The notes beneath the pieces are model-generated. The model did no database searches and was not told the DNA's origin. It worked only from the letters and a program-made list of their open reading frames with translations. A DNA stretch of 64,000 bases from a virus (taxonomy: Duplodnaviria > Caudoviricetes): the IMG/VR virus record IMGVR_UViG_3300005713_000004, positions 12,734 to 76,733 of that record; one strand, given 5' to 3'. A program made the position numbers and the translations under genes. Positions 287-15,846 of this stretch are shown here, piece by piece; the stretch's first letter is position 1, and the number at the start of each line of letters is the position of its first letter.

Positions 287-293
287 GAGGTAG

Positions 294-321
294 ACATTAC
301 ACGACCCCCCGGGGATGTCAA
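294..321 (-). promoter_or_regulatory. Cassette promoter
   Basis: TTGACA-16-TAATGT. Confidence 0.8.
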
Positions 322-345
322 CACCCGGGGGGTCGGTGGTCTCGA

Positions 346-597
346 TCAGACGAGCGCCGAGACGAGGTCCCGCGCCATCGCGGGGGCCGCCTCGCGCGGG
401 ATCGCCGCGACGTCGCCGGTCCACAGGATGTGCCGCCCGTCGCGGCGGCTACTGCGGCTCCACACGGTCCGGCGCAGGACGAGCGTCGCCGGGTCGTCGG
501 CGACCCAGTCCATCTCGACGAGCACGTCCGGCGTGGAGACGAGCGTCGTCGCGTGGCGCTCGTCCCACCGGGGGTAGTCGGCGGCGGTGTCGGTCAT
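346..597 (-). CDS. Hypothetical protein (MTDTAADYPRW...)
   Basis: Follows upstream ORF by 4 nt, GC3-rich. Confidence 0.65.
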   Translation of the reverse strand: MTDTAADYPRWDERHATTLVSTPDVLVEMDWVADDPATLVLRRTVWSRSSRRDGRHILWTGDVAAIPREAAPAMARDLVSALV

Positions 598-601
598 GAT
601 C

Positions 602-811
602 TCAGCCCTTCGGGTGGACGGCGTCGCGGACGTCGAGGATCTTGCCGAGCACGCCCGCCCACTCCTGCGCCTCCGGGCCGCCGTAGCGGACCATGCGCTC
701 ACGGAAGGTCTCGACGCGTGCGACGAGGTCCGCGAGGTTCTCGGCGCGCTCGCGCTCCGCCTGCTGGCCTCGCAGGGCCGCGTCCAGGGCGCGGGATCCG
801 GTGCTCGCCAT
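602..811 (-). CDS. Hypothetical protein (MASTGSRAL...)
   Basis: AGGAGG SD, downstream of promoter. Confidence 0.7.
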   Translation of the reverse strand: MASTGSRALDAALRGQQAERERAENLADLVARVETFRERMVRYGGPEAQEWAGVLGKILDVRDAVHPKG

Positions 812-848
812 CGTGGGTTCCTCCTGTGGTGGTGGGGTGTTGAGATAG

Positions 849-876
849 AGACTACACGGCCCCCGTGGGATGTCAA
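849..876 (-). promoter_or_regulatory. Cassette promoter
   Basis: TTGACA-TCCCACGGGGGCCGTG-TAGTCT. Confidence 0.8.
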
Positions 877-906
877 CCCACGGGGGCCCTGTACGTGCTC
901 CCGCTA

Positions 907-1164
907 TTACGTGCCCTTGCCCCACTTCGTCCGTGGCGCCGGAGGCGCAGGCGGCGGCGTCTTCGGGCGGGGCGGGAGTGGGGCGCTCCGGGCCTCCCGC
1001 TGCTCGTACAGCAGCCGCGCCCGCGCGTTGTCCGCCTCCGCCCGCGCCATCGACCGGCGCGCCTCCGTGAGCCGGTCAGCCACCCCCACGACCGCGCAGA
1101 CGACGAGCAGCGCGAGGAAGAACGCGGACACCGGGTTCGCGGCGGCGAAGTCGAGGACGCTCAC
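907..1164 (-). CDS. Small membrane protein
   Basis: Hydrophobic FFLALLVVCAVVGVA; GTGA/stop coupling. Confidence 0.6.
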   Translation of the reverse strand: MSVLDFAAANPVSAFFLALLVVCAVVGVADRLTEARRSMARAEADNARARLLYEQREARSAPLPPRPKTPPPAPPAPRTKWGKGT

Positions 1165-1355
1165 CGTGGCCTACCCAGCAGACCCAGCAGCCCCCACCCC
1201 GCGAGCCACCACACGACCGCCGGGGTCGGGATCCCACCGGCGAGGATCTCCCACCCGGCGACCCACAGCAGCGACAGCGCGGACACCGCGAGGATCCCCG
1301 ACGAGGTCCCCCGGTTCTGCGCCCGCTGCTCGGCGGCCGGGCCCTGCGCGATCAC
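1161..1355 (-). CDS. Small membrane protein
   Basis: Two hydrophobic segments; coupled overlaps. Confidence 0.55.
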   Translation of the reverse strand: MIAQGPAAEQRAQNRGTSSGILAVSALSLLWVAGWEILAGGIPTPAVVWWLAGWGLLGLLGRPR

Positions 1356-1552
1356 ACGCCGTCCCGGCGGTCACGGGCGAGCGAGTGGAGCAGCGCCCGG
1401 AGGTCCGACTTCGTCGCCTGCGGGTTGTCCAGCCGGAGCAGGTGGAGCCGCTCCGCTCGCGTCACCCGACCCGCCTTCCGGGTCGACGCCTGCGCCCGGC
1501 GCTCCGTCGCCGCCGCCACCTGCTCCGGGGTCACCGGTCGGCCCCGGTCCAT
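1352..1552 (-). CDS. Hypothetical protein
   Basis: GC3-rich frame; stop overlaps next GTG; start uncertain. Confidence 0.5.
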   Translation of the reverse strand: MDRGRPVTPEQVAAATERRAQASTRKAGRVTRAERLHLLRLDNPQATKSDLRALLHSLARDRRDGV

Positions 1553-2072
1553 CGGAGGGAAGGGGGACGGGGCCGCTGCTGCTGCTCGGACCCGGGCCGG
1601 GGGTCGCTGTCGGAGCAGGGTCGCGAGTCGCTGGGCTCGTCGGTGGCTGCGCGGTCCGCGCGGGTGGGTCGGTGGGGTCTGCTCCCGCTCCGGGTCGAGC
1701 GCCACCGCTTCCCGGTGTCGCTGGTCCTGCTGCTGTCGTGGGGTTGGCACTGGTGGTGTCCTCCGTGATGTAGGGCAGGAGGACCGGGACCTCTCGGACC
1801 ACGGTCTCCGGGGGTGGTGGCGGGATCGTGACGACCAGCGTGGTTGCGGGCACGTCGGGCGGGAACTGCGGGACGGTGATCGGGGCGCCTTCGCCCCGGA
1901 GCAGGGCGCGGACGTCGTCGAAGGCGGAGAGCGGGCCCGCGAGGTGGGAGAGCCATCCTCCCCCGGCGAGGGCTACCGCTGCGGCGGTGAGGTAGCAGGG
2001 CCACCGGTACGCGTCGAGGTCGAGGCGCCTCCGGGGGACCTGCTCGATCTGCTGCGTGTCCACGCCCCCCAT
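1371..2072 (-). CDS. Membrane-anchored Pro/Thr-rich protein
   Basis: SD+ATG at 2072, TM segment, Pro-rich tail; 3' part overlaps next gene. Confidence 0.45.
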   Translation of the reverse strand: MGGVDTQQIEQVPRRRLDLDAYRWPCYLTAAAVALAGGGWLSHLAGPLSAFDDVRALLRGEGAPITVPQFPPDVPATTLVVTIPPPPPETVVREVPVLLPYITEDTTSANPTTAAGPATPGSGGARPGAGADPTDPPARTAQPPTSPATRDPAPTATPGPGPSSSSGPVPLPSDGPGPTGDPGAGGGGDGAPGAGVDPEGGSGDASGAAPPAPAGQPAGDEVGPPGAAPLARP

Positions 2073-2111
2073 CCTGCTCCGATCCACGGTACCCAGGTAT
2101 TGTATCGGCAG

Positions 2112-2130
2112 GCGTTCCACTTCGGAACGC
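2112..2130. promoter_or_regulatory. Inverted repeat in divergent intergenic region, putative operator of transfer module
   Basis: GCGTTCC-ACTTC-GGAACGC between divergent starts at 2072 and 2169. Confidence 0.45.
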
Positions 2131-2168
2131 GGGAGGAGTTCGGGGCATGGACCAGACGGGGAGGCCCG

Positions 2169-2384
2169 GTGGCGGAACCGGTAGTACCGCTGCTCGCGGA
2201 ACTGCGAGCGCTGCGGGAAGCGAGGGACCGGTGGCACAGCCGGGCGCCGGAGATCGTCCGGCTGCTGCGGGAACAGGGGGTGAGCCTGCCCGCGATCCGG
2301 GAGGCGACCGGGGTCGCGCAGGCGACCGCGCATCGGCTCGCGTCCTCCACGTCGCGCAACTCACGCTCGCCGGACCCCCGGTGA
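2169..2384 (+). CDS. Small HTH DNA-binding protein (putative transfer regulator)
   Basis: GGGGAGG SD + GTG; LREQGVSLPAIREATGVAQATAHRL HTH pattern. Confidence 0.65.
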   Translation: MAEPVVPLLAELRALREARDRWHSRAPEIVRLLREQGVSLPAIREATGVAQATAHRLASSTSRNSRSPDPR

Positions 2385-2494
2385 ACGTGTGCGACGAGCG
2401 GCCGTGGCAGGCGGCGGAGGCGGACGCGGAGCAGTGCCGCGCCTGCCAGACGAAGCAGTGGGTTCGGGCCGGGCGACAGGGAGAGACCCGATGA
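2381..2494 (+). CDS. Hypothetical 37-aa protein
   Basis: GTGA and ATGA coupling at both ends. Confidence 0.4.
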   Translation: MNVCDERPWQAAEADAEQCRACQTKQWVRAGRQGETR

Positions 2495-2685
2495 TCGCGG
2501 CGGCTGCGCTCGCCGTGATCCTGCTGGGCGTCCTGCTGTTCCGGGGCGACGCCGGGCGCGTCGGGATCCTCGTCGCGTTCGCCTGCGGCTCCGTGCTGTC
2601 CGGCGCGGCGATGCTGTGGGGTCTCGGATACGACCTGCTCGGCGTGGTCGTACAGGTGGCGTCGAGCGTGGCAGGGATCGGCTGA
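2491..2685 (+). CDS. Small membrane protein (Spd-like spread protein)
   Basis: Mostly hydrophobic; coupled to traA-like gene. Confidence 0.6.
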   Translation: MIAAAALAVILLGVLLFRGDAGRVGILVAFACGSVLSGAAMLWGLGYDLLGVVVQVASSVAGIG

Positions 2686-4298
2686 TGGCCACGTCCTCGA
2701 CGAGTCGCCGCGCGGACGCGACCCCGGCGGCTCCGCCCACCCCCCCGGCTTCGCGTCCGGCGCAGGGTCGGCCGCAGCGGACCGACGCCCCCGGCGCCGA
2801 CGAGGGCGTGGACACGAAGCGGCCCGGCCTGCCGGTGTGGGTCCTCGCGGTGCCCGCCGTGCTGGCCGTGGCGATGTGGATCGGGTGGGCGTTCGGGTGG
2901 GGGTGGGGTGTCGCGTTCGCGGTGGCCGCGCTGCTCGCCCTGCTCGTGTGGCGGCTGCTGGTCGCCCGGAAGGCCCGCGACGCGAAGAGCACGAAGGACG
3001 GGAAGGGCAGCCGGTCGGCCGCCCGGAGGGAGCGCAGGTGGAACAGGCGGACGACGGACGGGTCTACCCGTTCGGGACAGCCGGGGTCGGCTCGTGGTCT
3101 TCGGGGGCTGGCACAGCGGCTGCGTGCGAGGGCTGCGGGGAACCCGTTCCGTGGCGGTACCTCCGGTGGGGGCCGGTCGAGCGGGACGGGCGGGTCGTCG
3201 TCGAGCGGCTCGAACCGGCGTGGCACCCGGCGTGCGGGCGGCGGGCCGCGTGGCAAGGGCTCCGGGCTGATGTCGCGACGGCGCGGGATGCGGTCGTCCT
3301 CGTCGGGGAAGGGCTCGCCCGGCTCGTCCCGCCGATCGTCGGGGCCGTCGGGCCCGTCCTCGAAGCGGGGGTCCCGATCGTCGTCGAGCGGTTCGGGGTG
3401 GTGGTCGCGACTGCGCGGGAAGTCGGGCGCGTCCACCTCGTCCAGGCGCGGCGGGGGCTCCGGTGGGTCCGGGTCGACCGGGTCGGGCGGGCGGCCGGGC
3501 GGTGGGTCGGGGGGCTCGTCGTCCGGGTGGACGCGGCGCGGCAGGAGTGGGCGCGCGGGGTGGGCTACACCCGGGCGTGGCGGCGGGCACTCGACGGGGA
3601 CGACGAGGTGGGTCCCGTGGTGGCGGCGCCGGGGTGGCGCGGGTGGGACGTCCTCCCCGGGGGGGAGCGGTTCCGGCCGCTCGCGCCGGGGGAGTTCGAG
3701 CGGTGGGGGTTCCGGTGGGACGGGCGGCACGCCTCCGTCATCCGGCGGGACCCGGCCGCAGGGGAAGCGGGCCCGGCTTCGGGGGCGGGGGTCCTCGACG
3801 CCTTCCGGCGGTTCGACGGGATCGGGCCCAGCGGGCACGGGGACGTGGACACGCCGTCGCAGCAGCGGCGGCGCCGACAGGGCCGCAGGCCCGGACAGGA
3901 GTAGCGACATGCCGAAGAGCAGCAGCGCGCCGCGTGGGCGGCGGGGGACCGGGGCCGGGCCGTGGGGCCCGATGGTGGACGCGGCGGCGAACGTCGCCCG
4001 CGCGTTCTCCGACCCGGTGGCCATGGAGGGCGTGAACGCGCTCGACACGGCCGGGGACGCGTGGGAGCAGATGGGCCGGTCCGTCAAGGTTGTGGGCGCC
4101 ACGATCGCCGACGAGATCGATTGGGACCCGCGCGTGGCCCGGTTCTTCGAGGTGATGGGGGACGTCCTCATCCGGGCTGCGAAGCCCGCCCGCGACGGTG
4201 CCGCCGCTGTCCGGCGCGCGGAGCACGAGCGGATCAACAACGTGGAGGAGGGCGGCTCGCGCCGTCGCCGGTGGGATATCAGCGCCCACGACAACTAG
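2685..4298 (+). CDS. TraA-like transfer protein: 2 TM, long Gly/Ser/Arg linker, helical C-terminus
   Basis: Position directly before traB; architecture recalls actinomycete plasmid/AICE transfer proteins. Confidence 0.55.
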   Translation: MATSSTSRRADATPAAPPTPPASRPAQGRPQRTDAPGADEGVDTKRPGLPVWVLAVPAVLAVAMWIGWAFGWGWGVAFAVAALLALLVWRLLVARKARDAKSTKDGKGSRSAARRERRWNRRTTDGSTRSGQPGSARGLRGLAQRLRARAAGNPFRGGTSGGGRSSGTGGSSSSGSNRRGTRRAGGGPRGKGSGLMSRRRGMRSSSSGKGSPGSSRRSSGPSGPSSKRGSRSSSSGSGWWSRLRGKSGASTSSRRGGGSGGSGSTGSGGRPGGGSGGSSSGWTRRGRSGRAGWATPGRGGGHSTGTTRWVPWWRRRGGAGGTSSPGGSGSGRSRRGSSSGGGSGGTGGTPPSSGGTRPQGKRARLRGRGSSTPSGGSTGSGPAGTGTWTRRRSSGGADRAAGPDRSSDMPKSSSAPRGRRGTGAGPWGPMVDAAANVARAFSDPVAMEGVNALDTAGDAWEQMGRSVKVVGATIADEIDWDPRVARFFEVMGDVLIRAAKPARDGAAAVRRAEHERINNVEEGGSRRRRWDISAHDN

Positions 4299-4343
4299 GC
4301 CGCAGGGCCTAGGCAGTACCAACCACCACCACAGGAGGACCAC

Positions 4344-6644
4344 GTGTCGGAGACGCCTACCCGGATCACGATCCCGCCCGCGCTGGGCTACCCGGTGTTG
4401 GGCGTCCTCGTCGTGTTCATCGCCGGGTGGCTCTACACGTTCGCCGGGGCGGAGCACTTCGCGCCGTGGTGGCTCCTGCTCGCCGTGCCGGTGCTGGGCT
4501 TCCTCGGCGCCGCGCTCGCCCGGACCTTGTGGGCGGACGTCGCGTACGGGGTCGCCCAGCAGCGGGCGGCGGTGTGGTTCGCGTGGGTCGCGGCGGCCGG
4601 GGCGGGGGCGTGGCTCACGTGGGCCGGGCTCGTCACCCCGGGCGCCGCGCTCCCGCTGCTCGTGTTGGGCGCCCTGCCGTTGTGGGGGTGGTTCGCGATC
4701 CTGTGCCTGCGGGCGCCGAAGGCCCACGCCCGGCAGGTCGAGCGCCGGGAGGAAGGGCGGCAGATCGTCCAAGAACGGTCGTGGCGGACGATCCTCGACC
4801 GGTCGGGGTCGGAGGACGTGGTGATCACGGAGGTCCGAGAGCACCGGGCCGGGATGGTCCTCACGGTCGAGCCGGACCCGGACGCGGCGAAGTTCCCGAC
4901 GTACGACGAGTTCGCGGGCCGGGCGCCGTCGATGGCGACGCAGGCGGCGATGCACTACCGGCGGACCTCGAACACGCGGCTTCCGAAGAACTGCGTCCGG
5001 ACGGAGCCGGGCCGCGACGACGCAGAGTTCCTCGTCCACATCACGATGCGGGACGTGTTCGGGGCCTCGACGTGGTACCAGCCGGACGAGGTCCCGGGGG
5101 ACATCGCGGACCCGGTGGATCTGGGCGAGTACGAGGACGCGGCACGGCTGCTGCTCCCGCTGGACGCGAACACGAAGATCGTGGGGGCGACGGGGGCGGG
5201 GAAGTCCAACCTCGTGAACAACATCATCGGGCGGATCACCGGCACCATGAACGCGCTCGTGTGGGTCGCGGCCACGGACAAGTTGGTCCCGCTCGTGTGG
5301 CCGTGGCTGCGGGCGTGGCTGTCGGGGAAGACGAGCCGCCCGATCCTCGACTACGTCGCTGGGCAGGACATCGACTCCGTGTTGCGGCTGCTGCGGGCGA
5401 CGTACCGGCTCGTCTGCGAGCGCAACGCCCGACTTGAGGACGAGTCGAAGATCCGGCCGACGGCGGACCTGCCGGTGGTGTTCGTGATCCTCGAAGAGGT
5501 GTCCCACCTCACCGACTTCCCGGACACCATCCGGACCCACGACGGGATCGACTGCACGGCTTCGGACCTGCTCAAGATGATTGCGCAGGCGGACCGGTCG
5601 GCGGGGGTCCGGCTGTTCATGCTGTCGCAGTACGGGATCAACGCGGCTCTCGGCGACCGGGCGTCGGAGTTGATCCGCAACATCACGTGCAGGATCTGCC
5701 TTCGGACCATGGAATCCCACGACGGGTTCCGGACCCTGCCGGGTCTGCCGTCGACCGTGGACACGACCTCGCTCGCAAACTTCACGATGTACGTGCAGCC
5801 GAACACCGAAGAGGCGCGGGCGTTCCCGGCGAAGGCGCCGGAACTGGACGGCGCCGAGCAGGTCGAGCCGGTCGCGATCGGGAACACCCGGTGGCGCCCG
5901 GCCGGGGTCGAGCCGGAGGTGGCCGCGCTGCTCGGCCTCGACTACGAGCGGCGGTGGGCGTCCTCGCGCCTGCCGATCCTGGCGGCCCCGGTGGCGAGGC
6001 GCGGGTGGGAGTGGCCCGGCGAGCAGGTGGCGCCGGTCCCGGTCCCGGCGGCGCCGGTCGACGAGGTGGACGAGGGGTCGCCCGTGGCGGGCGGCCCGAA
6101 CGATGGGGGGGACAGCGTGGATACGACCATGAGTCCGGAGGACGAGGACGCGTTCCGGCGGCTGCTCGGCGGCGACGAGCCGGAGCAGCGGCAGGGACCG
6201 GCTGCGGCTGCGTCGGTCGCGGTCGACCGGGACGAGGACACGAGCGGGCGCGCGGCGCCGTTCGAGGTCCCCGACTTCGGCGCGGAGATGGCGGAGATGG
6301 AGGCGCTCGCGGCGGACATCGCGGCGAACCCGTTCGTCCCGGGTCGCGATCAGGACGCGACCCGGGAGGCTGGTCCGGGTCGCCCGGTCCCCGACCCGCT
6401 CGACCGGGTCGTCCGGTGGCTGGACTCCGTCCCGGTCGACGAGGACGCGTGGGTCCGGACGGAGGAACTCGTGTTCCGGATCGGGTGGGACCGGGACGCG
6501 GCGGCTCTCGGTCGGGCGCTCGCGAAGTTCCCGGGCGTCCGGTCGGACAACCTGCCCCGGCAGTTCGACCCGCAGCAGCGGAAGGGCTACCCGGTCCGGA
6601 TGCTTCGGGAGGCGGCGACCCGGTACCGGTTCGGGTCGCCGTAG
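4344..6644 (+). CDS. traB: TraB-type FtsK/SpoIIIE conjugative DNA translocase
   Basis: N-terminal TM helices, Walker A GATGAGKS, Walker B VFVILEE, C-terminal wHTH-like RTEELVFRIGW...LGRAL...RKGY; AGGAGG SD. Confidence 0.85.
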   Translation: MSETPTRITIPPALGYPVLGVLVVFIAGWLYTFAGAEHFAPWWLLLAVPVLGFLGAALARTLWADVAYGVAQQRAAVWFAWVAAAGAGAWLTWAGLVTPGAALPLLVLGALPLWGWFAILCLRAPKAHARQVERREEGRQIVQERSWRTILDRSGSEDVVITEVREHRAGMVLTVEPDPDAAKFPTYDEFAGRAPSMATQAAMHYRRTSNTRLPKNCVRTEPGRDDAEFLVHITMRDVFGASTWYQPDEVPGDIADPVDLGEYEDAARLLLPLDANTKIVGATGAGKSNLVNNIIGRITGTMNALVWVAATDKLVPLVWPWLRAWLSGKTSRPILDYVAGQDIDSVLRLLRATYRLVCERNARLEDESKIRPTADLPVVFVILEEVSHLTDFPDTIRTHDGIDCTASDLLKMIAQADRSAGVRLFMLSQYGINAALGDRASELIRNITCRICLRTMESHDGFRTLPGLPSTVDTTSLANFTMYVQPNTEEARAFPAKAPELDGAEQVEPVAIGNTRWRPAGVEPEVAALLGLDYERRWASSRLPILAAPVARRGWEWPGEQVAPVPVPAAPVDEVDEGSPVAGGPNDGGDSVDTTMSPEDEDAFRRLLGGDEPEQRQGPAAAASVAVDRDEDTSGRAAPFEVPDFGAEMAEMEALAADIAANPFVPGRDQDATREAGPGRPVPDPLDRVVRWLDSVPVDEDAWVRTEELVFRIGWDRDAAALGRALAKFPGVRSDNLPRQFDPQQRKGYPVRMLREAATRYRFGSP

Positions 6645-6761
6645 GCTGTCCGGGTCGTCCCGTCCTGCTACGCGACCCGCTACGTGGGTCGGGGCGACCC
6701 GGACAGCCACCGGCGCGCGGCGAGCCGGAGCGGGTCGCCGGACCGGGGTGGACGACCCGGG
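6644..6761. repeat. clt-like locus with GACCCG(G/C)N repeats
   Basis: 14-bp inverted repeat GGCTGTCCGGGTCG / CGACCCGGACAGCC (6644-6657, 6695-6708), each with GACCCGGA, plus further GACCCG copies. Confidence 0.55.
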
Positions 6762-6777
6762 AGAACCTGCTCCACGC

Positions 6778-6811
6778 GAGAGGCCCGGCCCCGACGGGGG
6801 CCGGGCCTCTC
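6778..6811. terminator. Bidirectional hairpin terminator
   Basis: GAGAGGCCCGGCCCC...GGGGCCGGGCCTCTC between convergent genes. Confidence 0.75.
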
Positions 6812-6823
6812 TGCTGTCCCGGG

Positions 6824-7165
6824 TTAGCGACCCGCGAGCCAATCGTTGAACCGGTCGCGAGCCTCTTCCTCGGACCCGGCGTAGTAGCCGCCGCCGGGGC
6901 CTTCCTCGAAGTAGCGTTCCGCCGCGCGCTCCGCCGCGATCTCCGCCCGGTGCTCGGCCTCCCATTCCTGCTGAATCGCCCAGCAGTGTCGGACGTGGGC
7001 AACGGTGGCGTGGCGGACGATCGCGTCCGGCCCGGTGACGCCGTAGCCCCGTTCGGTGTCGGAGCAGGATCCGCAGCGGACGCCGTCCGCTGTGCGCTCC
7101 GGGAGGCGGTAGTACTCGATCTCGTCGATCGGGCGGGCGGTGGCGGCCGTGGTGAGGGTCGACAT
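6824..7165 (-). CDS. Hypothetical protein (CxxC...HxxxC)
   Basis: GGAGG SD, own promoter. Confidence 0.7.
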   Translation of the reverse strand: MSTLTTAATARPIDEIEYYRLPERTADGVRCGSCSDTERGYGVTGPDAIVRHATVAHVRHCWAIQQEWEAEHRAEIAAERAAERYFEEGPGGGYYAGSEEEARDRFNDWLAGR

Positions 7166-7186
7166 CGTGTCCTCCGGTGAGGGTCT

Positions 7187-7257
7187 CTGTTGAGTTTTCA
7201 ACCGGACCCGGTGGGCCCGACACGAGAGACATTACACGGCGACCCACGACCACGCAA
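7187..7257 (-). promoter_or_regulatory. Cassette promoter with hairpin and boxA-like leader motif
   Basis: TTGCGT-17-TAATGT (7257-7229); TTGAAAACTCAACAG (7201-7187). Confidence 0.75.
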
Positions 7258-7418
7258 GCCCCCTGCGCGACCCGTTGCAGATCGAGACCCCACCGTGACC
7301 CGCAACGGTTGCGCAACCGTTGCGCCCAGCCGTGGACACGGCCAAAGCCCCCTCCCCACCTGCGAAAACACCGCGAGGGGGGAGAGGGCTCCGCGTGCAA
7401 CGGTTACAGCCGCAACGG

Positions 7419-7988
7419 TTACAGGACCAGCAATGCGACCCCCACCCACGACATCACCGACACCGGGAAGTACAGCCACGCGAGGCGGCTCGCTTCGACC
7501 TCGGACCCCGTCGAGAACACCCGCCCGATCCGCAGCCGCCCATCCCGAACCGCCGTGTAGTACCCCCGGTCGCGGCCGGGCCACGGGATCCCCGACATCG
7601 TCCGAGCGTCCCCCCACAGGTGGACGCAGCAGCCCACGAACACGCAGGCCCACCACCACACCGCCATGACCGGGCCGCCCAGCGGCGCCGGGACCAGCAG
7701 CGCCAGCAGCGCCACCGGGAGCCCGAACACCGCCGCTGCGGACCTCGTGTGCGTCCACCCCCTGTGCTCCACGAACAGGCACAGCAGCCACGACACGAGC
7801 CGCGTCGCCGGTCCGAGCGAGTGGGTCACCGTCGAGCCCGGGTGGTCGAGGTCCGGCAGGAGAGCGGAGTACCCGACGAGGATCCCGCCGAGCACGGCCG
7901 CCGGGAGCGGGACGCCCAGCCCGTGACCCGCCCCGGCGACCCACGACCCGGCGGCGAGCCCGGTCGTGAGGTGGCTCCGGGCCATCAT
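7419..7988 (-). CDS. Membrane metal-dependent hydrolase (YdjM/DUF457-like)
   Basis: MMARSH...ALLPDLDHPGS...HRGWTH...HLWGD motifs. Confidence 0.85.
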   Translation of the reverse strand: MMARSHLTTGLAAGSWVAGAGHGLGVPLPAAVLGGILVGYSALLPDLDHPGSTVTHSLGPATRLVSWLLCLFVEHRGWTHTRSAAAVFGLPVALLALLVPAPLGGPVMAVWWWACVFVGCCVHLWGDARTMSGIPWPGRDRGYYTAVRDGRLRIGRVFSTGSEVEASRLAWLYFPVSVMSWVGVALLVL

Positions 7989-8911
7989 GACGCGGACTCC
8001 GCGTCCTGCTCGACCGGAGCCGGGACGGGTCGCACAGCGGGTCGCGCGTCCCGGGCCTGCGCGAGCAGCCGGGTTGCCTTCGACCCGCCGCAACCCGCGT
8101 GCTCCCGGACCGCCTTCGCGGTCGGCGGGCGGCCGACCCGGTCCCACTCCGACCCGATCCACGCGACCGTCGCCGGGTCGTCCGGGTCGCCGACCCGGGT
8201 TGACCCGGCGGGTCGTGCCGGGTTGCGGGTCGCCGGGACCCGGGTCGGGGCCTTCCGGTCGGGACGGGTCGCCGGGTCGGCGACGGCCGGGACGGGTCGC
8301 GAGACGACCTGCTCGACCCGGGTCGTCGGGCGGGCGGCGAGCGCGGCGCCTACGGCGTCCCGGATCGCGTCCCGCTGCTCGACCCGGATCGCGTCCCGGA
8401 TGCGCTCCGGGTCGGCGGAGACCGGGATGCCGACGAGGTGGGTCACGGGCCACGTCGTGTCCACGTCCGCGCGCATCCGGGCGACGTAGTCGCGGACGCG
8501 GCCCAGCATGACGGCGACGAGTTCGAGGGTGACCGCGAACGAGATCGGGGCCCACACGGCGGCGGCGAGGCGGCCGACGCCCTCGCCGACGGACGGGGCG
8601 CCGAACGCGTCGGCGCTCGCGAGGTTCGCGGCGATGGTGCCGATGAACCCGACCCCGAACGCGAGCCACGGGACGAAGCCGATCGGCTGCTGCGCCCAGC
8701 GGCGGGAGTACATCACCACGAGCGCGGCGATCAACATCCCGTCGGTGGTGAGCGGGAGCCACGCGGCGCGGGACTCCGCCTCGCCGTAGGTCCGGAACAC
8801 CTCGTACGCGTGGTGGTAGGAAGCGACGGCGGCGGGCCCGCCGACGGACGCGAGGATCGCGGCGATACCGAGCAGCATCGCGGCGACCGCGAGAGCGGTT
8901 CGGGTGGTCAC
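7985..8911 (-). CDS. DUF2637/SpdA-like membrane protein with C-terminal HTH
   Basis: SYHH...WLPLTTDGMLIA...GTIAAN...AVWAPISF pattern; typical of actinomycete conjugative elements. Confidence 0.75.
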   Translation of the reverse strand: MTTRTALAVAAMLLGIAAILASVGGPAAVASYHHAYEVFRTYGEAESRAAWLPLTTDGMLIAALVVMYSRRWAQQPIGFVPWLAFGVGFIGTIAANLASADAFGAPSVGEGVGRLAAAVWAPISFAVTLELVAVMLGRVRDYVARMRADVDTTWPVTHLVGIPVSADPERIRDAIRVEQRDAIRDAVGAALAARPTTRVEQVVSRPVPAVADPATRPDRKAPTRVPATRNPARPAGSTRVGDPDDPATVAWIGSEWDRVGRPPTAKAVREHAGCGGSKATRLLAQARDARPAVRPVPAPVEQDAESAS

Positions 8912-9351
8912 GGGAGGATCTCCAGTCGGACGGAGCGGGTGATGTCGTGGCCGTTGTCGTCGAGCAGCGCGACCGGCTCCGCGCGAACCTCGATCAGGTC
9001 CGACGGCGGGCGGCGCGTGGTGGTGGCGGTGGCGCGCATGAGGGTCATGTGGTGGGCGACGGCGACCGCGTCGGCCGGGTCTTCGGCGATGTGGACCCCG
9101 ACGACCTGCTCGTCCGCGTAGTGGCCGACGAGCAAGATGTACGCCTGCGTGCGCGGCTGCTCCGGGTCGGTGGCGCCCAGCCGCTCCGCTTCGCGGGCGA
9201 CGGCTTCGCGGTAGGCGTGTCCGGTGTCGCGGACGATCAGGCAGGCGGCGCGGTGACGGAGCCCGGCGCCGGTGAGCCCGGCGCCGATCGGGCAGGTCAT
9301 CTCACAGTCGTCGCGGGCCTCGAAGTAGTTCGCGGGGGTGAGGGTGTCCAT
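8908..9351 (-). CDS. Hypothetical protein
   Basis: AGGAG SD; coupled to next gene. Confidence 0.65.
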   Translation of the reverse strand: MDTLTPANYFEARDDCEMTCPIGAGLTGAGLRHRAACLIVRDTGHAYREAVAREAERLGATDPEQPRTQAYILLVGHYADEQVVGVHIAEDPADAVAVAHHMTLMRATATTTRRPPSDLIEVRAEPVALLDDNGHDITRSVRLEILP

Positions 9352-9406
9352 CGGGGTTCTCCTGTAGTGGGGCCCCGGCCCCCGGGGTGGGGGCCGGGTC
9401 CGGCGG

Positions 9407-9535
9407 TCAGTTCTGCGCTCGCCACGCGGCGGCGTCGGCGCAGGTCTCGCAGTGCCCGTCGCACTGCGGGTCGCCGCAACCGGCGGGGGAGGTGTCGGGG
9501 CGGGGGATGTAGATCCGGTGGCCGCTGCTGCTCAT
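9407..9535 (-). CDS. Small Cys-rich protein (CGDPQCDGHCETC)
   Basis: Downstream of promoter, SD-like AAGGA. Confidence 0.5.
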   Translation of the reverse strand: MSSSGHRIYIPRPDTSPAGCGDPQCDGHCETCADAAAWRAQN

Positions 9536-9581
9536 CTGTCCGGTCCTTCCGTTGGGGCCGCTGTCCGGCCCGACACGACAG

Positions 9582-9645
9582 ACATTACACGCCCCCCGTG
9601 GGTCACGCAACCCCCTTGCGTGAACCCACGGCAGGCGTGTAACGT
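9582..9645. promoter_or_regulatory. Back-to-back divergent cassette promoters
   Basis: Minus TTGCGT-17-TAATGT (9610-9582); plus TTGCGT-18-TAACGT (9616-9645). Confidence 0.75.
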
Positions 9646-9652
9646 CTGCGGC

Positions 9653-9991
9653 ATGACGACACGGACAGCACAGCCCCCCGCCCCACCGAAGCCGGTCCAC
9701 CTCACCCCCGGCGAGACCCGGGGCACGTGGACGGCCGTTGACGGCCGGTTCACGATCACGACCTACCGTGCCGGGCGAGGCGCCACCGCCGACGAGCGGG
9801 AGCAACAGGCCGCCGGAGCGCTCGACATCGTGGACACGGCGCGGCGCAACATCCTCGGACACGTGGGTACCGACACCGCCCGCGTCTACGACCGCGAGGA
9901 CGCCGTGGGCGCCATCACCCGCGTCCTACGGATCGAGCACCGGGACGCGGTCCGCCTCGCCGAACTCCGCGTCGCCCGGCGGGTGATCTGA
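9653..9991 (+). CDS. Hypothetical leaderless protein
   Basis: ATG 7 nt after -10. Confidence 0.7.
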   Translation: MTTRTAQPPAPPKPVHLTPGETRGTWTAVDGRFTITTYRAGRGATADEREQQAAGALDIVDTARRNILGHVGTDTARVYDREDAVGAITRVLRIEHRDAVRLAELRVARRVI

Positions 9992-9993
9992 TC

Positions 9994-10221
9994 ATGTGCT
10001 CGAACACGAAGCGGCACTTCCGCGACGAGGGCCCTGCGCTCGCCGCGATGCACCGGATGATCCTCAACCCGCAGAACCGGCGCCACCACAACCCGTGCCG
10101 GGTCATCCCCTGCGACCGGCACTGCGGGGAGTACGTGCTCACCTCGTCCCCACAGCGGGCGACGAGCGGGCGAGGCAGGACGAACGGCGGGAAGGGCTCC
10201 CGCCGGAGCGGACGGAGGTAA
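9994..10221 (+). CDS. Small putative Zn-binding phage protein
   Basis: CRVIPCDRHCGEYVLTS resembles phage CxxCxxxHLTS family. Confidence 0.55.
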   Translation: MCSNTKRHFRDEGPALAAMHRMILNPQNRRHHNPCRVIPCDRHCGEYVLTSSPQRATSGRGRTNGGKGSRRSGRR

Positions 10222-10226
10222 CGACG

Positions 10227-10586
10227 ATGGGCCACACGATCGGGCAGGCCGGGACCCGCGAAGAGCAGCGGGTGTTCATGGTCGCCACGCTGGACGAGGA
10301 CGCGACAGTCCTCGTCTCCGGATACCACCGCAAGCAGGAGTGGCGCCCGACCCGGGTGGCCGCGACGTTCGAGCGGGACCGCCCGAACACCACCGGGCCG
10401 TGGAACTCGTGGACGATGATGTCCGCGCACGTGAGCGGGTTCAACCTCCGGAAGGACGGGTCCGCAGGCGCGGACCACCGCGAGCGGCTGTACAGCAACG
10501 ACCGGGGCGGCCCCGACGTGGCCGCCGCGCTCGCCGACATGGCCCGGCTCGTCGAGGCCCACGGCGTCGACCAGCCCGAAGCCTGA
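10227..10586 (+). CDS. Hypothetical protein
   Basis: GGAGG SD. Confidence 0.7.
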   Translation: MGHTIGQAGTREEQRVFMVATLDEDATVLVSGYHRKQEWRPTRVAATFERDRPNTTGPWNSWTMMSAHVSGFNLRKDGSAGADHRERLYSNDRGGPDVAAALADMARLVEAHGVDQPEA

Positions 10587-10597
10587 CCGGAACGACC

Positions 10598-10631
10598 AGC
10601 AGCCCCCGGACCACATGGTCCGGGGGCTGCT
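10598..10631. terminator. Bidirectional hairpin terminator
   Basis: AGCAGCCCCCGGACCA...TGGTCCGGGGGCTGCT. Confidence 0.75.
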
Positions 10632-10636
10632 TCGTG

Positions 10637-10747
10637 TCGCGGCGGTGGGACTCGAACCCACGACCTCCGGGGCCTCCCCCGGCGCGCTGCTCGTGATCCG
10701 CTGGTCGTACGCCCGGCGGGCGAGGCTTCCGGCTGCGCCACACCGCG
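10637..10747 (-). ncRNA. tRNA-Pro-like RNA lacking an anticodon loop, with 47-nt D-loop
   Basis: Acceptor CGCGGTG/CGCCGCG + A73, D stem GCGC/GCGC, T arm GTGGG-TTCGAGT-CCCAC, variable loop AGGTC; anticodon arm is CCGGGG-GAGG-CCCCGG. Confidence 0.7.
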
Positions 10748-10775
10748 AGCCCCCACAGTAGCCGTGGACACGGCC

Positions 10776-11633
10776 TCACGACCAGACGAGCCCCACGACG
10801 TTGACGTAGCCGCCTCCGGTCCCGAGGACGAGCGGGGCGGTCATCGTGATGGTGCAGCCGGTCGCGGTGAGCGTCCCCGACTTGAGGACCATCGTGATCG
10901 AGCCCAGCGTCCCGCCTCCGGGCTCGCGCAGGATCGCGATCGAGGTCGGGACGGCGCCTGCGCTGGTCCACGTGACCGCGACGTCGGTCGGGGTATTCAG
11001 CGCGAGCGCAGGCACCGCGACGCGGCCGTGGACGAGCCGGGGCCGGAGCGCTTCGAGCGCGGTCACGCGGGTGGTGAGCGCGGCGACCGCAGCGGCTGCG
11101 GCGTCGGCGGTGGTCTTCGCTCCGGCCGCTGTCGCGCCCGCTGCGGTCGCGGTCGACTGGGCGGCGGCTGCGTCCGTCTTCGCGGTGTTCGCCGTGGACT
11201 GGGCGGCGGAGGCTGCGGTACCGGCTGCGGTGGCGGTGGTCTGTGCTGCGGCGGCTGCGGTCGAGGCTGCGGCGGCTGCGGCGGTCGCCTCCGTGGCGCT
11301 CGTCTTCGCGCTGTCCCCGGTGGCCTTCGCGGTGTCGGCGGCCGTCTTCGCCGCAGCAGCGGCGGTCGAAGCGAGCGCGGCGGCTGCGCTCGCGGACTGG
11401 GCGGCGGTCGAGGCGGCTCCGGCTGCGGTGGTCGCGTCGGCGGCTGCGGTCCCGGCGGCGGTGGCCATGGTCCGGGCGTTGCTGGCCATGGTCCGGGCGC
11501 TGTCCCCGGTGGCCTGCGCGCTGTCGGCGGATGCCTGTGCCGCAGCAGCAGCGGCGGCGGCTTGAGCAGCGGCGTAGGACCGACGCTCAAGCTCGATCAG
11601 ACGTTCGGTGACCGGGCCGGTGATCTGGCGCAC
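10776..11633 (-). CDS. Ala-rich coiled-coil fibre-like protein with C-terminal beta domain
   Basis: GGGAGG SD + GTG; long A/T/S heptad-like run, then RVTALE and beta-rich C-terminus. Confidence 0.7.
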   Translation of the reverse strand: MRQITGPVTERLIELERRSYAAAQAAAAAAAAQASADSAQATGDSARTMASNARTMATAAGTAAADATTAAGAASTAAQSASAAAALASTAAAAAKTAADTAKATGDSAKTSATEATAAAAAASTAAAAAQTTATAAGTAASAAQSTANTAKTDAAAAQSTATAAGATAAGAKTTADAAAAAVAALTTRVTALEALRPRLVHGRVAVPALALNTPTDVAVTWTSAGAVPTSIAILREPGGGTLGSITMVLKSGTLTATGCTITMTAPLVLGTGGGYVNVVGLVWS

Positions 11634-11730
11634 GCTCGACCTCCCGTCGGCGCGGGCGGACACGAGGACAGGGTAGGGCGGGGCGCCGGGCGACGCACCT
11701 TCCCCACCGTGGATTACCTTGCCAAACCTT

Positions 11731-11822
11731 CCGTGGATTGTCAACCCGCCTGGTCCGATCGGGTGACAATCCACGGAATCCACGCAGGGGGCTTGCGCGT
11801 GTCCACGCCTTGCGGGTAATGT
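11731..11822. promoter_or_regulatory. Divergent promoter/operator region
   Basis: Minus TTGACA (11744-11739) within CCGTGGATTGTCA/TGACAATCCACGG inverted repeat; plus TTGCGC-18-TAATGT (11793-11822). Confidence 0.7.
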
Positions 11823-11862
11823 CTCTCATGTCAGGCAAGCCCCCCCCGCCACGGAGGACACG

Positions 11863-12555
11863 ATGAGCGACAACGACACCACCACCGGCCCCACCTACCG
11901 ACTCACCCGCGAGGACTGGTTGCACCGGGCGACCGACATCCTCCGCCCGATGTTCGAGCAGGTGGGCGCCACCCTCCCCGACGTGATCCACCTGTCCGTC
12001 GGCTTCGGCGGCTCCGGCGCCGGGAAGTACGAGCGGTTCGTAGAGGGCGTCACGTGGTTCCGCGCGGCCGACGCCTGCGGCCACAACCACGTGTTCATCT
12101 CCCCGACGCTGGGCGACACCGCCCACGTCCTCGAAGTCCTCGTTCACGAACTGTGCCACGTTGCCACGGACAACGTGGGTGGTCACGGGGGCGAGTTCGC
12201 GGAGTTCATGACCCGGCTAGGCATGACCGGGCGGATGACCACCGCGCAGGCGGACGTGCCGTTCATGGCGGAGCTGATGGTCATCGCGGCGGAGTTGGGC
12301 GACTACCCCCACGGGGCGCTCGACATGGCGCCCGTCAAGGTCGAGGCGCCGGTGGGCCCGGACGGGATCGAGATCCCGGTCGGGCGGCCGACCAGCGGCC
12401 CGAAGGCGCAGACAAACCGGTGGATCTCGTTCTCCTGCCCCGTCCACGACGCGCCGGTCCGGATGTCGCGGACGAAGGCGGCTCTCGGCGCCCCGTACTG
12501 CGGCCACCGGGACGAGCAGGGCGTCCCGTGCCTCACGGAGATGGTGGCGCGGTAG
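11863..12555 (+). CDS. SprT-like zinc metalloprotease
   Basis: VLVHELCH (HExxH) then GHGGEF; C-terminal CxxH/C ribbon; GGAGG SD. Confidence 0.85.
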   Translation: MSDNDTTTGPTYRLTREDWLHRATDILRPMFEQVGATLPDVIHLSVGFGGSGAGKYERFVEGVTWFRAADACGHNHVFISPTLGDTAHVLEVLVHELCHVATDNVGGHGGEFAEFMTRLGMTGRMTTAQADVPFMAELMVIAAELGDYPHGALDMAPVKVEAPVGPDGIEIPVGRPTSGPKAQTNRWISFSCPVHDAPVRMSRTKAALGAPYCGHRDEQGVPCLTEMVAR

Positions 12556-12651
12556 GCGGGTGGACACGGCCCCCCGGCTGCGGCCGGGGGGCCGTTCTGC
12601 GTCCTCGACCTGCCGCAGGTCGTGTCCACGGTCACGAGTCGGTCACGGGGC

Positions 12652-12680
12652 TTGCACTTCCCACGGTCGCCGGGTAATGT
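12652..12680 (+). promoter_or_regulatory. Cassette promoter
   Basis: TTGCAC-17-TAATGT. Confidence 0.7.
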
Positions 12681-12727
12681 CTCTCATGTCGGGGGGAACA
12701 GCCCCCCACCACCACCCGGAGGTCCCG

Positions 12728-13117
12728 ATGATCGCCACCACCGCCACCACCACCCCCTACGCCCCGGCGAAGTTCGCCCGGGTCGTTGCCGCCCTGGTCC
12801 GGCAGTTCGCCGGGCTGGTCGTCGGCGCCGAGTGGGTCTCCGGGCTCGCGCTGGGCTGGGATGTCGAGATGTGGGCGCCGAAGGCGGACCACCTCTCGCT
12901 CGCGCTGTGCCCGGTCGAGGAGGACGGGTCCACCGGCGCAGCCGTGCGCCGGGCGACGATCGTCCCGGGCCAGTACCGGGCGTGGGAGGTCGTGGCCGAC
13001 GGGATCGTGCTGGGCGAGTTCCACGGCCTCGACGCGGCGGTGAGCCACGCGCTCGACCACGTCGCGGTGCCGTGCTGGGCGCCGGTCCAGCATGACCACG
13101 ACGCGTTCGCCGTGTAG
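12728..13117 (+). CDS. Hypothetical protein
   Basis: GGAGG SD, own promoter and hairpin. Confidence 0.7.
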   Translation: MIATTATTTPYAPAKFARVVAALVRQFAGLVVGAEWVSGLALGWDVEMWAPKADHLSLALCPVEEDGSTGAAVRRATIVPGQYRAWEVVADGIVLGEFHGLDAAVSHALDHVAVPCWAPVQHDHDAFAV

Positions 13118-13146
13118 GCGAGCCGGGCCCCGGCTCCGGCCGGGGC

Positions 13147-13252
13147 CCGTGGGTTGTCACCCGATCGGACCACCTCCCCGGCTTGACTTCCCCCGGGTCG
13201 CCGTGTAATGTCTCTCTTGTCGGACACGGAGCCCGGCGGGACAACTCAACAG
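13147..13252 (+). promoter_or_regulatory. Cassette promoter with upstream inverted half-site and boxA-like leader
   Basis: TTGACT-17-TAATGT (13183-13211); GGGACAACTCAACAG (13238-13252). Confidence 0.8.
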
Positions 13253-13264
13253 AGGGAGTCAGGG

Positions 13265-13510
13265 ATGAGCGAGTTCACCCCCACCGGCCGCATGATCGTC
13301 TACGTTGAGTGGGACGTCCGGGCCGGGAAGCACGGGGCCTCCACCGGCGACGTGTGGGCGCGAGCGGACCTGATCGGCGGCGGGAAGGCGGAGTTCGCCG
13401 GGACCGACCAGCAGGTCACGGACTGGGCGCTCAACGTCATGACCGCAGCCGGAGCGCGCGGGATCGCCTGCGAGATCCGGGACGGTCGGGGGCTGGTGAC
13501 GCAGGACTGA
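13265..13510 (+). CDS. Hypothetical protein
   Basis: SD, own promoter. Confidence 0.7.
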   Translation: MSEFTPTGRMIVYVEWDVRAGKHGASTGDVWARADLIGGGKAEFAGTDQQVTDWALNVMTAAGARGIACEIRDGRGLVTQD

Positions 13511-13664
13511 CCGGGCGCGAGAGCCCCACTGCTTCGGCGGTGGGGCTCTCGCCGTGTCCGGGCCCGTGCGACCGGCTGAGCGGGCCGGTGCCGGGCGCAG
13601 CGGGCGCGGCTGGGCTCCGGGCCCACCGAAGCGGTCGCGGGCCGCAGGAGACCTCTCACGGCCT

Positions 13665-13771
13665 CCGTGGAATGTCACCCGATCGGACCATGGTCCGGGC
13701 TGGACAACCCACGGTCGACCGGGTAATGTCCCTCGTGTCGGGCCGGTCGGCCCGGCGGGACAACTCAAGAG
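13665..13771 (+). promoter_or_regulatory. Cassette promoter with upstream inverted half-site and boxA-like leader
   Basis: TGGACA-17-TAATGT (13701-13729); GGGACAACTCAAGAG. Confidence 0.75.
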
Positions 13772-13784
13772 AGATGGTGCAGAG

Positions 13785-13937
13785 ATGATCGAGGTCACCG
13801 TGGTTACCCTGCTCCGCCTGATCGCCGCTCGCGCGGACGGTCGGATCGCGGGCCCCACCGTTGACGCGAAGATCGCCGAACTCACCGCCCGGTTCACCGC
13901 CTCCGGCGAGATCGTCGCGGTCCTGAGCGCCGAGTGA
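13785..13937 (+). CDS. Hypothetical protein
   Basis: First ORF after promoter. Confidence 0.55.
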   Translation: MIEVTVVTLLRLIAARADGRIAGPTVDAKIAELTARFTASGEIVAVLSAE

Positions 13938-14002
13938 TCGAGCAGCCGCCCCGCTCCGGCGGGGCGGCTGCCCCTCTCCACCACCTCGACCAGCAGGAGG
14001 AC

Positions 14003-14431
14003 ATGATGGGCACGTTGATCGACAACCCGGACATCGGCTCGTGGCGGCAGCGGCTCGCAGGTCTGCTCGCCGGGTACGACCTCGCCGACCCGCGCGAGCG
14101 GCAGGCGGCCCACGAGGTCGTCGCGGAGGCCGCTGCCCAGACGTCCATGCGGGGTCTTCGGGACCTCACGTTCCGGTTGGGGTACCGGGGCTACTCGCCC
14201 CGGAGCCGGGGCGAGGCGGTCGCGAAGATCGTCGCCCGGTGGGCGGACCTGCCTGCCGAGCAGCGCCGGGCGCCCGACGCCACGGACGCGGATGTCGTGG
14301 ACACGCTGCGGCAGGTGGCGGACCTCGCAGCCGAAGCGGCGGCCGACTTCGAGGTCACCGCCGAGCAGGTGACCCGGCTCGCGCGGCTGGTCCGGTACCT
14401 CGTGGACGTCACGCCCGGGGCGCAGCGGTGA
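14003..14431 (+). CDS. Hypothetical protein
   Basis: AGGAGG SD (alternative GTG 13934). Confidence 0.7.
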   Translation: MMGTLIDNPDIGSWRQRLAGLLAGYDLADPRERQAAHEVVAEAAAQTSMRGLRDLTFRLGYRGYSPRSRGEAVAKIVARWADLPAEQRRAPDATDADVVDTLRQVADLAAEAAADFEVTAEQVTRLARLVRYLVDVTPGAQR

Positions 14432-14643
14432 GGGCGCAGCGGTGGGCGGACCGGCTGCTCGACGTCGCGGCCGACGAGGTGGCGGGGTCGCCGGTGTTTA
14501 GGCAGGTCCGCCGCGACATCGTGGCCGCGTACGCCCCGCAGGTCCGGGCGTCGGTGCTGCGGGAGGTGGGGACCCTGCTCCCCCGGACGAGCCTTCACCG
14601 GGCCGGGTGGGCGGGCGAGATCGCCCGGGACCTCGCCCGGTAG
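14428..14643 (+). CDS. Hypothetical protein
   Basis: GTGA coupling, followed by hairpin. Confidence 0.55.
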   Translation: MRAQRWADRLLDVAADEVAGSPVFRQVRRDIVAAYAPQVRASVLREVGTLLPRTSLHRAGWAGEIARDLAR

Positions 14644-14785
14644 CGGCTGGTCGAGCAGCGGAGCCCCCGGCGTGTCGCGCGCCGGGGGCTCCGGCGTGTC
14701 GCGGGGCGGCGAGGCTGTGACCTGCGAGAACCCGGGGAGGCGACACGCCCGGGTGCACAACACGCCGCGTCCACGCCCCCGGGTG

Positions 14786-14813
14786 TTGACATCCCACGGC
14801 GACCGTGTAGAGT
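14786..14813 (+). promoter_or_regulatory. Cassette promoter (leaderless)
   Basis: TTGACA-TCCCACGGCGACCGTG-TAGAGT. Confidence 0.85.
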
Positions 14814-14820
14814 CTCCCTC

Positions 14821-15225: not shown

Positions 15226-15332
15226 GGGCCCGGGGGTCCGGCTTCGGCCGGGCCCCACCCCCTCCGACCTGCGACGATGCGGCGAGCCCGGCGGCTGCGA
15301 CGCACGTCACCCGATCGGCCCACCCCCGGGGG

Positions 15333-15360
15333 TTGACTTCCCACGGCCACCGTGTAGAGT
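15333..15360 (+). promoter_or_regulatory. Cassette promoter (leaderless)
   Basis: TTGACT-TCCCACGGCCACCGTG-TAGAGT. Confidence 0.85.
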
Positions 15361-15367
15361 CATTCCC

Positions 15368-15839: not shown

Positions 15840-15846
15840 TACACCC

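Follow-up and report, generated by a model that had tools for sequence, protein, structure and literature searches.

A putative TraB/clt-like DNA translocation module with clustered motif arrays in a tailed-phage genome known from a metagenome

In Streptomyces plasmids such as pSVH1, pIJ101 and pJV1, the TraB protein carries a membrane anchor, an FtsK-type motor and a C-terminal winged helix, and short repeats are clustered at the 3' end of its gene or beyond it. The clt locus of these plasmids consists of 8-bp repeats that are bound by the cognate TraB (PMC4447253). Homologues of SpdB2, a plasmid-spreading membrane protein, occur on the actinophages phiC31 and VWB, where they were proposed to help spread phage DNA (PMC4447253, Thoma et al. 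2015), although a motor or clt was not reported for those phages. The plasmid-phage pZL12 (GQ919031) is a tailed-phage genome with an FtsK-like transfer gene and adjacent membrane-protein genes (locus 71c-73c), and its transfer is reported to need the tra gene and two neighbours (PMC3583192). FtsK-like genes are also common on Streptomyces phages, for which a possible use in replication has been suggested (PMC11536984; bioRxiv 10.1101/2024.02.16.580700). Here we describe a module built around a predicted TraB/FtsK-like pump gene in a stretch of 64,000 nucleotides (the window), which comprises bases 12734-76733 of the IMG/VR virus record IMGVR_UViG_3300005713_000004.

We give an even chance to the explanation that this module translocates double-stranded DNA (dsDNA) in a sequence-directed manner, as a TraB/clt-like system resident on the phage and acting on the phage's own genome. 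The element combines a motor, a membrane anchor, a winged helix and clustered short repeats that resemble clt, with the binding of these repeats being predicted. Action on the phage's own DNA is suggested because arrays of the cognate type are present on the phage genome and are conserved in position. The genomic context lends support, as the pump gene lies beside a DUF2637 gene in the same way as in the FtsK-like/DUF2637 loci of Streptomyces plasmids.

For the pump gene, a GC content at third codon positions (GC3) of 0.95 indicated a real coding sequence; GC3 was used for gene calling because of the high G+C of the genome. The protein carries the Walker A motif GATGAGKS (residues 281-288) together with VFVILEE, which resembles Walker B. 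An AlphaFold model was built from 36 homologues, with a predicted local distance difference test score (pLDDT) of 86. In this model, four long hydrophobic N-terminal helices (residues 12-125, pLDDT >90) form the predicted membrane anchor, the linker at residues 568-676 is disordered and located after the motor, and the protein ends in a compact domain with a helix, a strand, two helices and a wing. Searching the motor fold with Foldseek returned FtsK motor structures first (E 1e-13, about 430 columns, TM-score about 0.6 on the target), followed by the conjugation coupling protein TcpA, EccC/EssC and HerA, and the pump profile matched FtsK and EccC in the PDB. When the C-terminal domain was modelled alone (pLDDT 94.5), the top of both fold searches was made up of winged-helix DNA binders throughout, led by Rex (Z 6.9), MarR and Z-alpha, with modest E-values and Z-scores. 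The sequence, the model and the fold searches confirmed the transmembrane (TM) helices, the P-loop and the winged-helix-like end that a preliminary description of this DNA had reported. Sequence divergence is faster in the C-terminal domain than in the motor, as would be expected of a specificity domain, although this proves nothing.

In the PHROGs library the pump matched the FtsK/SpoIIIE-like group (2e-15). Among the NCBIfam models, plasmid_TraB (NF041214) was the best match to the pump and again to its distant homologues (28-62 bits), with FtsK scoring much lower for the latter, and the FtsK equivalog NF007615 did not match the pump. On these profile scores, plasmid TraB rather than FtsK appears to be the nearest curated family for both. 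The modelled architecture is that of TraB/FtsK, and membership of the curated TraB and FtsK families was not found by sequence. The branch of the pump appears to be small and divergent because a search of 1.84 billion representative proteins gave just 339 matches at E<=0.001. Two of the homologues, P0019 (940 aa) and P0039 (1286 aa), are longer than the others, and P0019 contains an intein splicing domain (PF14890).

The second line of evidence came from scanning the complete genome, with no motif supplied beforehand, for whichever k-mer showed the most extreme local clustering. The top clustered k-mer was CGACCCG(G)/GACCCG, which forms two arrays 1.3 kb apart. Array 2 contains 20 copies within approximately 380 bp in the 3' half of the DUF2637 gene, where 1.3 are expected (Poisson p ~1e-17 to 1e-19). 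Array 1 contains 13 copies including inverted repeats, five of them in about 110 nt of non-coding DNA behind the pump gene. The consensus is CGACCCGG, with C at position -1 in 94% of the array copies compared to 48% of the copies elsewhere. The pSVH1 repeat is presumably GACCCGGA, an assumption under which the window motif would be nearly identical to it. A literature search on the array motif returned unrelated papers only.

As array 2 and part of array 1 lie in coding DNA, synonymous codons were resampled according to the codon usage of the phage (2000 trials) and codon order was shuffled. The 20 copies of array 2 compare with 6.0+-1.9 (maximum 12) after synonymous resampling and 2.9 after codon shuffling, and the seven copies in the last 300 nt of the pump gene compare with 2.5+-1.2 after resampling. 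No copies of GACCCG are present in the N-terminal half of the DUF2637 gene or in the region of the pump gene encoding the linker. The excess resides in the DNA itself and does not stem from a repetitive peptide, because it exceeds both resampling and shuffling, the copies have mixed orientations and some are non-coding; low complexity of the coding sequence is ruled out as the cause on the same grounds. Iterons of a replication origin are an unlikely explanation, as the replication initiator gene is 20 kb away. Outside the bin containing the arrays, CGACCCG is oriented 13+/36- in the left 42 kb and 36+/17- at 42-72 kb, which does not follow the gene strand. This genome-wide polarity may be similar to that of the FtsK-orienting polar sequences (KOPS); with such small numbers it is a hint, on which nothing here relies.

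Relatives of the locus (L-numbered contigs) were found by protein look-ups; searching viral and genome contigs by pattern for related loci gave no result. Over its full length, the pump shares 38-62% identity with about two dozen metagenomic proteins. Their contigs (69-76 kb and shorter) share the order of a helix-turn-helix (HTH) gene, small genes, a protein of approximately 250-330 aa, a protein of approximately 140 aa and the pump, with YdjM and DUF2637 on the opposite strand in most of the syntenic contigs; one of them carries part of a terminase gene some 10 kb upstream of the pump. The module is thus syntenic in related phages whose pumps share 40-62% identity. Because this synteny and the shared genes extend across phages and phage-like plasmids, the module is judged to have long been a conserved component of these phages, as opposed to a recent insertion of an actinomycete integrative and conjugative element (AICE).

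Arrays were found at corresponding positions in relatives, with motifs that differ by lineage. The top or near-top cluster, at the same two places, was CGGACCG(G) in L004, L007, L017, L016 and 'Microcystis' phage Mwe-JY05 (in the last also GGACCG). L006 has an array of GACCGCTCC between the pump and YdjM. In Saccharomonospora phage PIS 136 the motif is GGAACC, with 26 copies in the DUF2637 gene compared to 3.5 expected and more downstream. The GGAACC copies in this phage (L002, 3800-5200) are arranged in two opposite blocks, mostly - at 4354-4859 and mostly + at 4929-5198, and a distinct TGGAACCA cluster is present in a 1.3-kb stretch without annotated genes. A Streptomyces anulatus plasmid carries a CGAAGC array in its DUF2637 gene (32 copies vs 14.6 expected), with a terminase gene near the DUF2637/FtsK-like locus. 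As a positive control, the same scan placed a CGTAACG cluster at the top, immediately 3' of the traB-like gene of the Nocardiopsis conjugative plasmid pSQ10. No array was detected in the 16 kb scanned of pPaSha3, a plasmid with a type IV secretion system and DUF2637 but no FtsK-like pump.

Several observations weigh against a TraB/clt-like system. At E<=0.01 the pump had no match in Pfam, including FtsK_SpoIIIE (PF01580), for which it is below threshold; the proteins of PIS 136, Mwe-JY05 and the S. anulatus plasmid score 20-21 bits with PF01580 against a cutoff of 24. The match to plasmid_TraB reaches 33.1 bits, compared to a cutoff of 800, and covers residues 210-314 only, so the pump fails as a TraB equivalog. 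In the comparison between TraB and FtsK that the preliminary description had called for, the ranking of the models came out for TraB and the structure for a TraB/FtsK-type protein, and the scores fell short of the cutoffs. Among the relatives, L005 has a weak array only, and L018 has the pump with neither an array nor DUF2637 and YdjM. Across ten sequences, the similarity of the C-terminal domains does not track the motif class: the domain of the window pump is nearer to that of L004 than L004 is to L007 or L017, although the latter two share the motif of L004. The protein that reads the arrays is for this reason one that we infer. A GntR-type TraR regulator next to traB, present as GntR genes on the small plasmids pSQ10 and pAGRA3207_2, was not found, as the 71-aa HTH protein is not of this type. 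YdjM is, to our knowledge, not known as a peptidoglycan hydrolase. Conjugation-like spread pays a lytic phage less than it pays a plasmid. Lastly, the phage is known from a metagenomic contig alone.

In comparison with the TraB systems of Streptomyces plasmids, the window pump differs in being located on a 77-kb tailed phage that has a large array of 13 copies and another of 20, the latter inside the DUF2637 gene. Its regulator is the 71-aa HTH protein instead of a GntR-type TraR, and YdjM and a CxxC protein are conserved partners. The precedent set by phiC31 and VWB is that phages can carry membrane proteins of the plasmid-spreading type. As phiC31 gave no DUF2637 match, DUF2637 and SpdB2 cannot be treated as equivalent here. 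The chromosomal FtsK/SpoIIIE proteins, with KOPS and SpoIIIE recognition sequences (SRS), share the motor fold (they are the best PDB matches), the membrane anchor and a winged helix, which in the window pump is the candidate for reading short motifs. They differ in that the window pump has its linker after the motor and not before it, does not match the FtsK equivalog, has clustered instead of dispersed motifs and is found in a phage/plasmid context.

The closest annotated homologues of the pump are those of PIS 136 and Mwe-JY05 (32% identity, E 9e-51 and 1e-44, respectively). Like the window phage, both have arrays and PIS 136 has a DUF2637 gene beside the pump. The pump is the only protein detectably shared with the window; its annotation in the two records is FtsK/SpoIIIE or hypothetical, and they assign it neither a role nor a cis site. 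PIS 136 contains a second copy of the pump, PIS_039 (L002, 9240-10274), which consists of the ATPase domain only, lies directly 3' of the full-length gene and is 34% identical to residues 254-562 of the window pump. The stated cyanobacterial host of Mwe-JY05 (PP395638.1) looks doubtful because the stretch has 74% G+C and actinophage-like genes. In the same record (L003), the annotated coding sequence at 4900-5979 gives an Arg/Pro-rich translation and looks like a wrong frame.

The best matches of the pump on 'plasmids' are themselves phage-like. Besides the pump, a 293-aa protein and, near the pump, YdjM, Actinoalloteichus pGBA129-24a (NZ_CP016078.1, L009/L010; 59.4 kb, circular) has genes for terminase, portal, capsid, tape measure, holin and a serine recombinase; its match to DUF2637 is weak and stays under the Pfam cutoff. 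Judged from its genes, this 'plasmid' is a complete siphovirus-type genome. On the S. anulatus plasmids (approximately 90 kb), a DUF2637 gene, a 690-aa gene and the pump gene are located near a terminase gene. The nearest relatives of the pump are located on phages or phage-like plasmids of Pseudonocardiaceae (PIS 136, Actinoalloteichus, Amycolatopsis) and point to this family at least as much as to Streptomyces. Together with the low TraB score, this does not sustain the label 'Streptomyces-type' that had been given to the module.

The precedent of pZL12, which had been put forward earlier, holds in that a tailed-phage genome carries a transfer locus. The pZL12 protein is 24% identical to the window pump over 340 aa (pairwise E 8e-6), and the gene order is similar. 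It is unlike the window phage in having its own 766-aa middle gene, which the window phage does not contain, and in having no YdjM; a Pfam DUF2637 match was likewise not found in pZL12, and the scan revealed no strong array there. The three-gene order 73c-72c-71c is also present on a linear Streptomyces longwoodensis plasmid. In addition, pZL12 encodes ParA/ParB and an integrase. In six-frame profile searches of the whole 76.7-kb record of the window phage, no tyrosine integrase (PF00589), serine recombinase (PF00239), ParA (PF01656) or ParB (PF02195) was found, although a divergent system could escape these models. The window phage does not, on this evidence, belong with pZL12-like phage-plasmids; the lack of an integrase noted earlier in the incomplete window extends to the whole record, and the 'plasmid-like prophage' deduced from it is not borne out.

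The source record is a virus of 76,733 bp with 72.6% G+C, classed as 'linear' and 100% complete according to CheckV. As previously described, it is a tailed phage, with structural, packaging and lysis genes: large terminase (TerL), portal, protease, major head and major tail proteins, tape measure (891 aa), tail proteins and an amidase endolysin. The best match of the large terminase is to Streptomyces phage Kromp (38%), and no near DNA match was found among deposited phages. A replication initiator (27975-28898), a PD-(D/E)XK nuclease, WhiB and SprT-like genes are also encoded. Separate from the replication initiator, a recombination-type block at 29526-35015 includes DUF2303, a 373-aa phrog_3657 protein and a DUF3799 PD-(D/E)XK nuclease.

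The promoter-like motif AGACATTACACG, the reverse complement of which contains TAATGT, has 19 matches compared to 1.08 expected. They are spread over positions 292-19484 of the window plus 63721, mostly upstream of small early genes, and two are within the module (7227 and 9580), so the sharing of a promoter motif between module and phage cassettes held up.

The features of the module are listed in Table 1. The + strand set ending in the pump is faced by a - strand set consisting of the 147-aa, DUF2637, YdjM and 113-aa genes, of which the 147-aa gene is probably the first of an operon with DUF2637 and YdjM. The family assignments of the latter two agree with those made earlier from the sequence (a DUF2637 gene and a membrane hydrolase). 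According to hydropathy and alignment, the DUF2637 protein contains four TM helices and a disordered, variable linker, and its HTH-like segment at the C-terminus is conserved. Small membrane-protein genes had also been predicted, and TM-like segments were found in the products of three of them (907-1164, 1161-1355 and 2491-2685); it is uncertain whether the small open reading frames (ORFs) at 907-1534 belong to the module. The regulator seen at the start of the + strand operon is, on weak matches, a small HTH protein, and relatives have an equally long gene in the corresponding place. The 288-aa protein, which had been called 'TraA-like', is 25-51% identical to the pre-pump gene product of relatives (approximately 250-330 aa) and has no match in Pfam, NCBIfam, PHROG, PADLOC or the ESM Atlas, so the name finds no support in any of these libraries.

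Table 1. Features of the module and its surroundings, with positions in the window
Feature	Position	Strand	Basis and remarks
Three small ORFs (907-1164, 1161-1355, 1352-1534)	907..1534	-	GC3 frame; first two with one TM-like segment each (hydropathy); no family match
71-aa HTH protein, opens + strand operon	2169..2384	+	Weak IclR-HTH and Raf1_HTH matches below cutoffs; PHROG transcriptional regulator, 6e-5
64-aa membrane protein	2491..2685	+	2-3 TM-like segments (hydropathy)
288-aa Arg-rich protein	3038..3904 (alternative start 2837)	+	Conserved CxxC...WHPxC; aligns with pre-pump gene of relatives
108-aa protein directly 5' of pump	3972..4298	+	GC3; positional counterpart in relatives; no family match
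766-aa TraB/FtsK-like dsDNA translocase (predicted)	4344..6644	+	4 TM helices, FtsK alpha/beta motor, linker 568-676, winged helix 686-762
Array 1, 13x GACCCG	6340..6760	both	Pump gene 3' end and downstream non-coding DNA
113-aa protein between the two arrays	6824..7165	-	GC3; own phage-type promoter motif at 7227; no family match
Palindromes and direct repeats, operator-like	7302..7422		GCAACGGTT(G/A)C
YdjM-family membrane metal-dependent hydrolase	7419..7988	-	PF04307, 73.7 bits vs cutoff 29
DUF2637 membrane protein	7985..8878	-	PF10935, 31.1 bits vs cutoff 22.8
Array 2, 20x GACCCG (9 +, 11 -)	8026..8413	both	DNA for the DUF2637 linker
147-aa protein	8908..9351	-	Promoter motifs at 9580 and 9636

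Between the ydjM stop codon and the promoter of the 113-aa gene, the operator-like region contains GCAACGGTTGC palindromes and GCAACGGTTAC direct repeats. The GCAACGGTT(G/A)C motif has seven matches compared to 1.3 expected, six of which fall in this region. In L004, L016 and L017 a motif of this class likewise ranks as the top or a near-top cluster in the corresponding place, which suggests that the repeats are a conserved operator.

The molecular parts of a TraB/clt-like system are the same as those of a device for segregation and inheritance, in which the phage would persist in a carrier or pseudolysogenic state and the pump, with the arrays acting like a centromere, would move its genomes across vegetative or sporulation septa, or retain them, for inheritance by compartments and spores, in place of ParAB. 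A complete genome in which ParA, ParB and an integrase were not detected would suit such a device, and the orientation blocks of the arrays in PIS 136, L004 and Mwe-JY05 recall KOPS-type guidance. However, no repressor or other lysogeny function was identified in the genome, and both the nearest curated family and the neighbouring genes point to conjugation rather than to chromosomal FtsK, and we consider inheritance an unlikely role, albeit one to be reckoned with. Another possibility is that the FtsK-like ATPase helps replication, recombination or packaging by resolving or moving concatemers during lytic growth. This draws on the use in replication suggested for the FtsK-like genes of Streptomyces phages mentioned above, but four TM helices and two membrane partner genes would be unexpected in a cytoplasmic replication factor, the replication initiator is 20 kb distant and the terminase genes are at the far end of the genome, which leaves this explanation with a small probability.

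The PHROG category of the pump, 'moron, auxiliary metabolic gene and host takeover', could instead indicate that a membrane ATPase disturbs host FtsK or septation, or excludes superinfecting phages by expelling incoming DNA, and some of the metagenomic contigs carrying these genes are fragments of which the origin is not established. The position-conserved arrays on the phage's own genome, however, indicate action on its own DNA, and such a role therefore seems improbable. When the proteins of the module were compared with the PADLOC defence models, the only match was a 28-residue P-loop match to mad8, which does not support a defence system. DUF2637 and FtsK-like genes are typical of actinomycete plasmids, which could also be explained by a fragment of a separate AICE or plasmid that was recently inserted and has no function for the phage. 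This last explanation, which the preliminary description had named as a refutation of its own reading, is close to refuted: no int, rep or att was found beside the module, its G+C content is the same as that of the rest of the genome, phage-type promoter motifs are present inside it, and it is syntenic across phages with proteins that are merely 40-62% identical.

If the module is a TraB/clt-like system, the pump would form a hexameric pore in the membrane and be loaded at the arrays, which would be bound by its winged helix (a candidate by analogy) or possibly by the HTH tail of the DUF2637 protein. The motor could then push the dsDNA of the phage through septal cross-walls or contacts between hyphae, and the membrane proteins DUF2637 and YdjM, the latter a hydrolase, would serve as its partners in the envelope. 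The benefit would be a spread of the phage genome within the mycelial host, or into neighbouring hyphae, that is independent of the virion. We put forward more tentatively the wider proposal of a lineage of tailed actinomycete phages free of lysogeny and plasmid-maintenance genes with a second mode of spread that is capsid-independent, in which the pump would read clt-like arrays and drive the genome through septa or hyphal contacts, so that infection of a mycelium or of its neighbours would progress without the need for adsorption; transfer of phage DNA by hyphal conjugation is something we infer.

To summarise, FtsK-like genes on Streptomyces phages, the pZL12 transfer locus and SpdB2 homologues on phages were already known. 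We did not find a previous description of a module of pump, CxxC protein, YdjM and DUF2637 in phages without lysogeny or plasmid functions, or of paired arrays that are fixed in position, differ in motif by lineage and have one member embedded in the DUF2637 gene. The candidate cis sites and the conserved membrane partners turn a vague FtsK-like annotation in actinomycete phages into a testable mechanism, and the arrays could serve as a computational marker for the clt sites of actinomycete plasmids and AICEs. If the proposed mechanism is true, a virus would be getting past the internal walls of a multicellular bacterium by means of conjugation machinery, which would blur the boundary between phages and conjugative elements and bear on phage infection, cell-surface resistance and gene flow in mycelial antibiotic producers.

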